Shown: positions 12,256 to 13,522 of the stretch, in pieces
Numbering within the stretch: the first letter of the stretch is position 1
Layout of the letters: each line of letters opens with the position of its first letter
Assembly (NCBI GenBank): GCA_016842005.1
Contig: JAENYD010000009.1
Span: 20,315 to 84,314 of the forward strand
Direction of reading: 5' to 3'
Origin: Clostridium thermobutyricum
GTDB taxonomy: Bacteria > Bacillota > Clostridia > Ch29
DNA length: 64,000 nucleotides
The notes under the pieces: generated by a model
Seen by the model: only the letters and a program-made list of their open reading frames with translations
Databases searched by the model: none
What the model was told of the DNA's origin: nothing
Position numbers and translations under genes: made by a program

Positions 12256-12528
12256 CTACATTGCCATCCTGACCAGCGGATTGGCAAACAGCAGTATCAG
12301 GGCAATTATCAGCCCGTATATGCCTGTGGTTTCCGCCACAGCAGCCCCCAGCAGCATTGTCCTTACAATATCGCCCTGGGCCTCGGGCTGCCTGCCCACC
12401 GCTTCCGCCCCCTTACCGGCGGCAAACCCCTGCCCTATCCCGGGCCCTATCCCCGCTATCATGGCAAGCCCCGCTCCTATGGCGGAAGCCGCCAGTACCA
12501 GCGCTTTTCCCGTAATGGGTTCCATATC
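12256..12528 (-). CDS. atpE: Fo ATP synthase c subunit, canonical single hairpin with a complete Na+-type signature (Q in GIGQG, then AETTGIY)
   Basis: About 90 aa starting MEPITGK. Strong GGAGGAGG RBS. Near-identical to I. tartaricus-type c subunits. The 5' extension of the track ORF to 12765 is not supported. Confidence 0.85.
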
Positions 12529-12721
12529 AGATTCCTCCTCCCTTTTATTCTGTCCCTGTGTAACCGTTTTTAGTTCTGCACAGACCGGGCTATGCCAGCA
12601 AGCTGGCAGGTTGCACTCCGAAACTCCGTATAATGTGGAGACGTTCCTGTCCATTAAGAAGTGCGATATGGGCCCATCTCCCATCCGTTGTCCCCCCGGC
12701 CACAGCAGTGAACAAACAATG

Positions 12722-13522
12722 CTATCCACCGGACAAGGGGTTCGCAAATATAAGCAAAAGGGCAATTATAAGGGCATATATGCCGGTTGTCTGGGCTACC
12801 GCCTGTCCCAGGAACATCACCCTGGTTATTTTCCCCTGGTGCCCCGGTCTCTTCCCCACAGCCTCCACTGCTTTCCCCGCGGCATATCCCTGCCCTATTC
12901 CCGGGCCTATTCCCGCTACCATGGCAAATCCCGCCCCCAGGGCAGAAGCCGTCATTACAGTCCATATCCCCCCGCCTGCAGCCAGGGGATTTGCAAATAT
13001 AAGGATCAGAGATACGACCAAAGCCAGTATTGTTGAGGTCTCAGCCACAGCAGCCCCCAGCAGGAGGGTGAAAGTAATGAGTTTTCTTGCCCTGCTGTTG
13101 GTCCCCACAGCTTTTGCCGCCATGCCTGCGGCAAATCCCTGACCTATGCCCGGCCCTATCCCCGCTATCATGGCAAACCCCGCCCCTATGGCGGACGCCG
13201 CCAGGGTCTGTTTGGCCCCTGCAGCCCCCGGCAGAGGATTGCCGAATATCAGGATCAGGGCCACAATCAGCGCCAGAATTCCCGATGTCTCCGAAATTGC
13301 AGCCCCCAGCAGCATTGTAAAGGTTATCTGTTTGCTCTCCTCCCTGTTGGCTCCCACAGCCTCGGCAGCCTTTCCGGCGGCAAATCCCTGACCTATGCCC
13401 GGCCCTATCCCCGCTATCATGGCAAACCCCGCTCCTATGGCGGAGGCTGCCAGCACCAGAGAGGCTTTGTCAAATCCGGAAAGCCACTCCACAAGCCTGA
13501 TAATTATGTTGATCCCTTCCAT
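12722..13522 (-). CDS. atpE: Fo c subunit with three c hairpins (6 TM) fused in one polypeptide. Hairpins 1-2 keep the carboxylate ([17 protein letters not shown]). Hairpin 3 has Q in place of E (AVAQTTGIY).
   Basis: Single uninterrupted 266-aa ORF with a GAAGGAGAG RBS. The GIGPGIGQG motif occurs three times. The DNA repeats are highly similar to each other. Confidence 0.85.

Follow-up and report, generated by a model that had tools for sequence, protein, structure and literature searches.

A three-hairpin c subunit encoded in an F-type ATP synthase operon of Clostridium thermobutyricum, and its fused relatives in other bacteria

A 64,000-nucleotide (nt) stretch of the Clostridium thermobutyricum genome (GenBank assembly GCA_016842005.1, contig JAENYD010000009.1, positions 20,315 to 84,314 of the forward strand; hereafter, the window) carries, within an F-type ATP synthase operon, a gene for a c subunit in which three hairpins are fused into one chain, next to a gene for a single-hairpin c subunit. 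We propose, with a probability of roughly three in four, that the fused gene encodes a genuine rotor subunit of the c1 type known from Acetobacterium woodii, that it is a two-hairpin c1 whose first hairpin was duplicated, and that it would bring two working Na+ sites and one uncharged glutamine site into the ring. Fused subunits are described below by the residue found at the ion-binding carboxylate position of each successive hairpin, so that A. woodii c1 is E-Q (or EQ) and the window protein is E-E-Q (or EEQ).

The fused c gene and its three hairpins

The fused gene lies at positions 12722..13522 of the window on the minus strand (-) and is one uninterrupted open reading frame (ORF) of 266 amino acids (aa), with an in-frame stop five codons upstream of its ATG and a ribosome-binding site, GAAGGAGAG, preceding the ATG. 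The Pfam family ATP-synt_C (PF00137) matched the protein in three stretches (134 bits, cut-off 24; E = 2.1e-39). When the hairpins were aligned with the single c and read with a hidden Markov model (HMM) of the hairpin, the carboxylate column was occupied by E78 (in ISETSGIL), E161 (in AVAETSTIL) and Q244 (in AVAQTTGIY); hairpins 1 and 2 have the ion-binding carboxylate, and Q244 stands in its place in hairpin 3. In agreement with the initial annotation, which had been made from the DNA letters and a list of ORFs, the protein is thus a chain of three c hairpins that all carry the motif GIGPGIGQG, the first two keep their glutamate and have a leucine in place of the signature tyrosine, and the third has a glutamine at the carboxylate position.

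The chain begins with an extension of 17 residues (1-17; 13472..13522, -), which forms a predicted helix at residues 4-15 with a nearly invariant Trp13 and aligns to the A. woodii c1 chain (PDB 4bem_J) from residue 4. This N-terminal helix with its Trp is common to all c1-type fused subunits, A. woodii c1 included, and is absent from the single c; its possible roles are those of a plug, of a signal for insertion or of an element in assembly. Hairpin 1 (residues 18-98; 13229..13471, -) reads Q45...E78-T-S with Leu at the Tyr position, the codon of E78 being at 13289-13291, and hairpin 2 (residues 99-183; 12974..13228, -) reads Q128...E161-T-S-T, again with Leu at that position (E161 codon at 13040-13042). 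Hairpin 3 (residues 184-266; 12725..12973, -) reads Q211...Q244-T-T-G-I-Y, with the Gln codon at 12791-12793 and the other Na+ ligands retained. The Gln of GQG and the Thr after the carboxylate position were kept in every hairpin and in the single c. Compared with the Na+ signature of Ilyobacter tartaricus, hairpins 1 and 2 have the Q, E, T and S with Leu for Tyr, and hairpin 3 has every element except the Glu; both hairpin 3 and the single c have the Tyr.

The closest solved relative of the fused protein is A. woodii c1 (4bem_J), which was its top PDB match (phmmer E = 6e-55) and its sole significant structural match with Foldseek (E = 8.7e-10); the Foldseek structure library contained no solved F-type c subunit with six helices. 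Residues 4-99 aligned to the N-terminal extension and hairpin 1 of c1 (AVAETSGIF), and residues 184-263 to its Gln-bearing hairpin 2 (AVAQTTGIY). The middle hairpin of the window protein shares 73% aa identity with hairpin 1 of the same chain and 57% with hairpin 3, and its mean identity was 0.66 to the first hairpins of c1 proteins versus 0.58 to their last hairpins, while the nearest relatives of hairpin 1 are the first hairpins of other c1-type proteins. Because hairpin 2 is closest to hairpins of the first type, the fused c is read here as a c1 in which the first, Glu-bearing hairpin was duplicated. From an alignment of 32 three-hairpin homologs, AlphaFold2 predicted six long helices arranged in three hairpins, together with the short N-terminal helix 4-15 (mean predicted local distance difference test score (pLDDT) 83.7; predicted template modelling score (pTM) 0.78), matching the six transmembrane helices (TMH) that had been expected of this ORF.

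At the DNA level, the repeats had been described as near-identical, so that their number could change by recombination. This description was not confirmed. The identities were 78% between hairpins 1 and 2, 64% between hairpins 1 and 3 and 61% between hairpins 2 and 3, with 69-72% between each hairpin and the single c, and the sole exact block common to hairpins 1 and 2 measured 56 nt (13377-13432 and 13128-13183, -), running from helix 1 to GQGFAA. Since the repeats have diverged, a recombination-driven change in copy number is much less likely than had been supposed, although the identical 56-nt block leaves some scope for it. Because orthologs vary in amino acids across this stretch, the block is probably the trace of a recent intragenic gene conversion in this lineage.

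The conservation of the fused gene was examined with a protein search that covered 5.8 billion protein clusters, and carboxylate patterns were read in the best 120 clusters formed at 90% identity. The identical window protein was returned from one NCBI contig. The E-E-Q layout was found in 11 of the 120 clusters, ten of them besides that of the window, in NCBI, JGI, ENA and Logan assemblies, and one E-E-Q cluster was observed on 30 contigs. In the closest species-level genome (L001, a metagenome-assembled genome (MAG) named 'Bacillota bacterium Ch29'), the E-E-Q protein is 82% identical, and its gene has a single c behind it and the same neighbours. Relative to this ortholog, the ratio of nonsynonymous to synonymous substitution rates (dN/dS) was 0.108 for the whole fused gene and 0.07, 0.135 and 0.087 for hairpins 1, 2 and 3, respectively, all of which are approximate values as dS is saturated (~1.3-1.4). 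Judged by these ratios, all three hairpins are under purifying selection. In the alignment of the 32 three-hairpin homologs, Q244 was invariant, M1 and W13 were nearly invariant, and the short linkers were conserved. A tree of the three-hairpin proteins placed the window protein in a coherent clade of seven E-E-Q clusters. The other E-E-Q proteins were scattered among E-Q-Q clades, which indicates that the middle Glu has been lost repeatedly.

An error of assembly or annotation, in which three tandem atpE genes or a collapsed repeat would have been taken for one ORF, could be suspected from the internally repetitive nature of the gene, with its exact 56-nt block, and from the record of the exact protein on a single contig. 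However, neither a stop codon, nor a frameshift, nor an internal ribosome-binding site was found between the hairpins of the fused gene, the linkers are short and conserved, and repeats of only 61-78% identity make a collapse by the assembler unlikely. The purifying selection on each hairpin also argues against such an error, as do the ten further E-E-Q clusters and the many EQQ, EQQQ and EQQQQ proteins present in independent assemblies, including complete isolate genomes, and one five-hairpin protein was even found to be identical in two unrelated samples. We consider an artefact to be effectively refuted.

The operon, its enzyme class and the single c gene

The F-type operon is complete on the minus strand and has the canonical order atpZ-I-B-E-E-F-H-A-G-D-C. 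The fused and single c genes are placed between atpB (subunit a) and atpF (subunit b), and the genes for delta, alpha, gamma, beta and epsilon are all in the operon. The gene order and the Pfam matches of all the atp genes bear out the earlier assignment of the fused c to an F-type operon. The first gene encodes an atpZ-like small membrane protein (14742..14960, -; PF09527 ATPase_gene1, E = 8.9e-19) and is followed by those for the assembly factor AtpI (14338..14745, -; PF03899 ATP-synt_I, E = 5.2e-15) and for the Fo stator subunit a, atpB (13628..14353, -; PF00119 ATP-synt_A, E = 3.5e-53). Beyond the fused c and the single c (c2/c3-type; 12256..12525, -; ATP-synt_C, E = 2.6e-19) come atpF for subunit b (11734..12231, -; PF00430, E = 1.6e-28), atpH for subunit delta (11159..11737, -; PF00213 OSCP, E = 7.1e-44), atpA for subunit alpha (9670..11175, -; ATP-synt_ab with its _N and _C domains), atpG for subunit gamma (8767..9633, -; PF00231, E = 1e-95), atpD for subunit beta (7366..8754, -; ATP-synt_ab) and atpC for subunit epsilon (6817..7239, -; PF02823 and PF00401).

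N-ATPase operons contain atpQ and atpR and have the order atpDCQRBEFAG. A Pfam scan found neither atpQ nor atpR in the F-type operon of the window, the AtpR match in atpI (19.3 bits) remaining under the cut-off of 26. Among protein family models, those for F0F1 subunit C scored best with the fused c (NCBIfam NF005521, 218 bits, cut-off 122), and the V-type K models scored far below their cut-offs (NF011483, 63.6 bits against 188; NF004913, 43 bits against 211). On the basis of the model scores and the operon content, a derivation of the fused c from an N-ATPase, from a V-type enzyme or from archaea was rejected. An enzyme coupled to H+, or one belonging to another rotary class (N-ATPase or V/A-type), instead of a Na+ F1Fo synthase, might be suggested by the Leu that hairpins 1 and 2 have in place of the Tyr of I. 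tartaricus, and by the score of the fused c with the N-ATPase c model TIGR03322 (123.8 bits), just under the cut-off of 130.85. This seems to us very improbable in view of the canonical F-type order with delta and epsilon, of the model scores, of the Q...E-T-(T/S) series, which is complete in the first two hairpins as well as in the single c (itself ~85% identical to the Na+-binding c2 of A. woodii), and of the presence of a separate V-type operon next door.

The single c had been annotated as a normal one-hairpin subunit with the full Na+ signature, and this reading stands, except that the gene bounds given for it (12256-12528) had to be corrected: the actual start is the ATG at 12525, which gives a gene at 12256-12525 and a protein of 89 aa. 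Its ligands are Q32, E65, T66, T67 and Y70, numbered as in I. tartaricus. It matched A. woodii c2 (4bem_A) with E = 2e-38, the ~85% identity being counted over 78 aligned residues, and the c subunit of I. tartaricus with E = 4.4e-34. At loci where the fused partner is EQ, EQQ or EEQ, the single c is 95-99% identical to that of the window, across genera, and the rate of evolution is much higher in the fused partner.

The spacer between the fused and the single c genes (window 12529-12721) is 196 nt long here, compared with ~20 nt in the closest ortholog, L001. It contains no c-like coding remnant, its predicted fold was no better than that of shuffled sequences (z = 0.08), its sequence is not conserved in the closest ortholog, and Rfam had no match in the whole window; a regulatory RNA in the spacer was rejected on these grounds. 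A promoter-like site, CAGACA-17-TATAAT, was seen at 12793..12765 (-), inside the end of the fused gene and upstream of the single c, as a match to the consensus only. As this site overlaps the stretch that codes for hairpin 3's conserved motif, and as the scan yielded only about twice the number of sites expected from shuffled sequences, an internal promoter for the single c is regarded as a lead and was not counted as evidence.

A complete V/A-type ATPase operon is located at 16577-25055 (-), ~1.6 kb upstream of the F-type operon, and contains genes for subunits D, B, A, F, C, E, K and I and a small 108-aa gene. The 163-aa K subunit (22313-22804) has its best match in the Na+ NtpK of Enterococcus hirae (2bl2, E = 1e-41) and retains the Na+ ligand motifs LPGTQG, IAQG and VETYA. 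The retention of these NtpK-like motifs suggests that two Na+-type rotary ATPases stand side by side in this organism. The region 15272-32839 was also compared with two loci (L078 and L079) of a relative with a five-hairpin c, in which a glycosyltransferase-4 gene, a UDP-GlcNAc 2-epimerase gene and two CoA-transferase genes precede atpZ. The same genes are present in the window, where the V-type operon and an NfeD/ClpP-like protease gene (15272-16477) sit between the CoA-transferase genes and atpZ, and a thiolase gene and a transporter-like gene sit between the epimerase and the CoA-transferases. From this comparison of gene order, it looks as though the V-type operon was inserted next to the F-type operon.

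Fused c subunits in other genomes

The initial annotation had named A. woodii c1 as the only related bacterial case known to it and was aware of no description of a triple-fused c in an F-type operon. The two-hairpin EQ form proved to be common, and forms with three to at least six hairpins were found in many public assemblies. Two truncated proteins (EQQ? and QEEQ) were left out of the count of layouts, leaving 118 of the best 120 clusters. Two-hairpin EQ proteins made up 38 of these clusters. Three hairpins were found as EQQ (23 clusters), EEQ (11) and ETQ (2), four as EQEQ (15) and EQQQ (14), and five as EQQQQ (12) or as EQEEQ or EQEGQ (3 together). In all 118 clusters, the first hairpin has Glu and the last has Gln, and the last hairpin also has Tyr at the Tyr position, except in 2-3 clusters with Leu or Phe. 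The identities between hairpins indicated that EQEQ is a duplication of the whole EQ unit, that EEQ is a duplication of the first hairpin, and that EQEEQ is an EQ unit followed by an EEQ unit. In two three-hairpin homologs (P0066 and P0075) and at two loci (L157 and L158), an inner hairpin has Thr or Ser instead of Gln at this position (ETQ, ESQQ), so that a site can be silenced by residues other than Gln.

A scan of one genome per GTDB species gave 76 loci, and in 67 of them a fused c was followed by at least one single-hairpin c, an arrangement that was also found at the five-hairpin loci. The loci departing from it are two in which a second fused gene intervenes, three with fused genes only and four with single-hairpin genes only; among the related operons as a whole, the few loci that have no single c behind the fused gene are mostly truncated. 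The EQ form with a single c was by far the most frequent (53 of the 76 loci), followed by EQQ + E (six loci), EQQQ + E (two loci) and EQQ + EQ + E, in which a second fused gene stands between (two loci). The layouts EEQ + E, EQ + EQ + E, EQ + E + E + E, EQEQ + E + E and EQEQEQ + E were each seen at one locus. Eight further loci did not fit the pattern of a fused plus a single c: four had only single-hairpin genes, one had a lone Gln hairpin, and three had only a fused gene, namely an EQQ gene of L013, an EQQ gene on a 2.3-kb contig and a truncated four-hairpin gene. The EQ + E pair of L013, which lies elsewhere on that locus, is included in the counts above. The longest F-type fusion of the genome scan, in a Peptostreptococcaceae MAG (L018:75-1616), has at least six hairpins (EQEQEQ), the gene being possibly cut by the contig start, and is followed by a single c.

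Several isolates carry a three-hairpin c, namely Cellulosilyticum ruminicola JCM 14822 (WP_083461242.1), Clostridiaceae bacterium 35-E11 (complete genome), Alkalibacter rhizosphaerae and Crassaminicella indica, and Alkalibaculum sp. M08DMB also encodes a fused F-type c among the homologs with three to at least six hairpins. The five-hairpin genes have the same context, atpZ-I-B-c(n)-c-F-H-A-G-D.

More distant fused proteins, with 3, 4, 5 and 7 hairpins and 30-48% identity, were found by a search of 50%-identity representatives. Six of them (P0135, P0136, P0137, P0147, P0161 and P0165) were scanned and matched F0F1 c models best, while the two proteins scanned among those with 10 to 13 hairpins matched V-type K models, of the archaeal kind. 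With one distant three-hairpin protein as the query, a scan of metagenome contigs gave 80 loci (L080-L159), some of which are labelled as sediment by name. These reveal a second, distant clade (~45% identity), in which the order a - c(multi) - c(E) - b - delta - alpha - gamma - beta was found in 77 of the 80 loci, the single c preceding the fused gene in the other three. The fused patterns of this clade have two to six hairpins and include EQQQ (37), EQE (10), EQQQQ (8), EQQE (7) and EQQQQQ (2), among others. Here, the last hairpin can have Glu, and the helix-1 Gln is often a Glu in hairpin 1. As read from gene content and order, a fused multi-hairpin c combined with a single-hairpin c is a recurrent operon architecture of bacterial F-type enzymes, present in at least two distant clades.

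Place in the ring and comparison with known rotors

Gene structure and motifs, the operon, membership of the family, conservation and the predicted fold are what was observed or computed above; the incorporation of the fused protein into a ring, its copy number there, the size of the ring and its coupling to Na+ are inferred. By analogy with the crystallised A. woodii ring, the fused subunit and the single c would share one mixed c-ring that binds Na+. In I. tartaricus, two neighbouring hairpins contribute to each Na+ site, one through Q32 and E65 and the other through the side chain of S/T66 and a backbone carbonyl. Because all four hairpin types of the window keep the Q and the T, E78 and E161 can be expected to form complete sites beside any of them. 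Q244 would be a permanently uncharged position, passing the a/c interface without an ion, and each incorporated copy of the fused subunit would take one ion site away from the ring.

A ring of 11 hairpins was assumed because the small-residue pattern in helix 1 of the single c is close to those of A. woodii and I. tartaricus; by this analogy, the ring size is a reasonable guess and no more. With one fused copy, such a ring would consist of eight single c and one fused c and would carry 10 Na+ per turn, or ~3.3 Na+ per ATP, which is the A. woodii value. On the same model, EQ and EEQ would both leave 10 Na+ sites per ring (3.3 Na+ per ATP), EQQ and EQEQ nine (3.0), EQQQ eight (2.7) and EQQQQ seven (2.3). 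The lowering of the ion-to-ATP ratio by a triple-fused c, as put forward initially, would thus hold in comparison with a homomeric ring, but not necessarily in comparison with the hybrid ring of A. woodii, since E-Q also removes one site. The E-E-Q form of the window is best seen as a stable state, duplicated and not yet silenced.

Several points weigh against our reading of the fused gene as a working rotor subunit, besides the saturated dS mentioned above. The Tyr of I. tartaricus hydrogen-bonds the Glu, and the sites of hairpins 1 and 2, which do not have this Tyr, may differ. The cytoplasmic loops of these two hairpins (ANRE and TNSR) also do not have the R-Q/N-P motif, which is retained in hairpin 3 (KRP) and in the single c (RQP), and their contacts with gamma and epsilon may differ as well. 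That the subunit enters the ring, its copy number there and the size of the ring are extrapolated by analogy with A. woodii. Finally, if the site count is equal for E-E-Q and E-Q, the model does not explain what advantage the additional hairpin would bring.

This last point, under the one-copy model, would also fit a protein that serves chiefly as a nucleus or ruler for ring assembly, or as a plug through its N-terminal helix, the loss of sites being incidental and not selected for stoichiometry. The fast evolution of the fused partner relative to the single c, the free variation in hairpin number from 2 to at least 6 and the conservation of the N-terminal helix with its nearly invariant Trp are consistent with such a role. 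However, the first full-length hairpin of the Clostridial clade always has Glu and the last always has Gln in the best 120 clusters, which suggests selection on the pattern of sites; the Glu of the middle hairpin was lost repeatedly, and the Gln hairpin retains every other Na+ ligand. We therefore regard a mainly structural role as improbable.

We give similarly little credence to the idea that the fused and the single c build alternative rotors, for example, a homomeric ring of four fused subunits (12 hairpins, 8 sites), so that the Na+/ATP ratio could be switched with conditions. The ring composition is open to either reading, the promoter-like site at the end of the fused gene could uncouple the expression of the single c, and the spacer is long in comparison with that of L001. 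Nevertheless, the two genes are adjacent in one operon at nearly every locus, the promoter-like site is a consensus match that falls on conserved codons, and the spacer is neither stably structured nor conserved. Moreover, the solved ring of A. woodii is mixed, 4bem containing both c1 and c2 chains (see also PMC9171764).

Beyond the incorporation of the window protein into a mixed ring, the wider family allows a broader idea, which we put forward tentatively and at odds clearly below even. Fused c subunits with two to at least six hairpins and one to five dead Gln sites might co-assemble with the single c and step the Na+/ATP ratio from ~3.3 down to ~2.3 in an 11-hairpin ring, as a graded gearbox of anaerobic Clostridia and of a distant sediment lineage. 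E-E-Q would then be a stable state between duplication and site loss, and the family as a whole would be an undescribed F-type counterpart of the multi-hairpin proteolipids of archaea.

The ion sites of the c-ring set the number of ions spent per ATP and, with it, the lowest membrane potential that still allows ATP synthesis. To our knowledge, the accepted levers on this number in bacterial F-type enzymes are the ring size and one type of case, that of A. woodii and Clostridium aceticum, in which a double hairpin has one dead site. A family whose fused subunits have between three and six hairpins, and from one to five dead sites, would add a third and much wider lever, in carriers that live near the thermodynamic limit. 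The idea can be put to a direct test, as there are carriers in culture (among them Cellulosilyticum ruminicola, Alkalibacter rhizosphaerae, Crassaminicella indica and Clostridiaceae bacterium 35-E11). Annotation and large-scale prediction of ring size are also affected, since pipelines name all the fused forms 'F0 subunit C'. The window gene matters more as an entry to this large, graded family than by itself.

In A. woodii, the existence of hybrid F/V rotors with a c1 of two hairpins is established (PMC9171764), and such rotors are described for C. aceticum (PMC7911925). A full-text literature search, whose coverage of the key papers on A. woodii-type enzymes was incomplete, found no paper in which a bacterial F-type c of more than two hairpins is described, and we think it rather unlikely that such subunits have already been mentioned in print. 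The sequences of the multi-hairpin homologs are public and annotated only as 'ATP synthase F0 subunit C', and at least one survey of ring stoichiometry explicitly dropped c sequences of more than 250 aa (bioRxiv 10.1101/2024.02.27.582367).

Among the known systems, the window protein most resembles A. woodii c1, with which it shares the N-terminal extension, the Q...ETS series with a non-Tyr residue in the first hairpin, the Q...QTTGIY series in the last hairpin and the place in the operon directly before a single-hairpin c of the Na+ type (~85% identical to c2/c3). With 266 aa and three hairpins (6 TMH), it is longer than c1, which has 182 aa and two hairpins (4 TMH); it has two Glu sites where c1 has one, and Leu where c1 has Phe at the Tyr position of hairpin 1, and it is accompanied by one single-c gene where A. 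woodii has two. The A. woodii ring consists of nine one-hairpin c and one c1, as reported in PMC9171764, and was seen as a mixed ring in a crystal, whereas the composition of the ring considered here is a proposal made by analogy. C. aceticum has the same c1/c2 pair and a Na+-dependent ATPase (PMC7911925).

The homomeric c11 ring of I. tartaricus and Propionigenium modestum (1YCE) shares with the single c of the window the identically numbered Na+ ligands (Q32, E65, T/S66, T67 and Y70), and hairpin 3 of the fused c aligns to its subunit over 78 residues. That ring differs in having one site per hairpin and neither a fused subunit nor a Gln site. Archaeal A-type proteolipids, with three hairpins in Methanocaldococcus and 13 in Methanopyrus, and the V-type c/K subunits with four TMH resemble the window protein in the multiplication of hairpins within one chain and the partial loss of carboxylates. 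They belong to another enzyme class with another operon, the fused c of the window scoring under all the V-type K cut-offs. In PMC9171764, c subunits with 1, 2, 3 or 13 hairpins are listed for archaea, and for archaea only. Because hairpin 2 of the window protein duplicates its own hairpin 1, the multiplication of hairpins seen here is independent of that in the archaeal proteolipids. The fused F-type homologs from databases, with three to at least six hairpins, are of the same family, are 60-87% identical to the window protein and are likewise followed by a single c; most of the three-hairpin homologs are E-Q-Q proteins with one live site, whereas the window protein belongs to the rarer E-E-Q clade.

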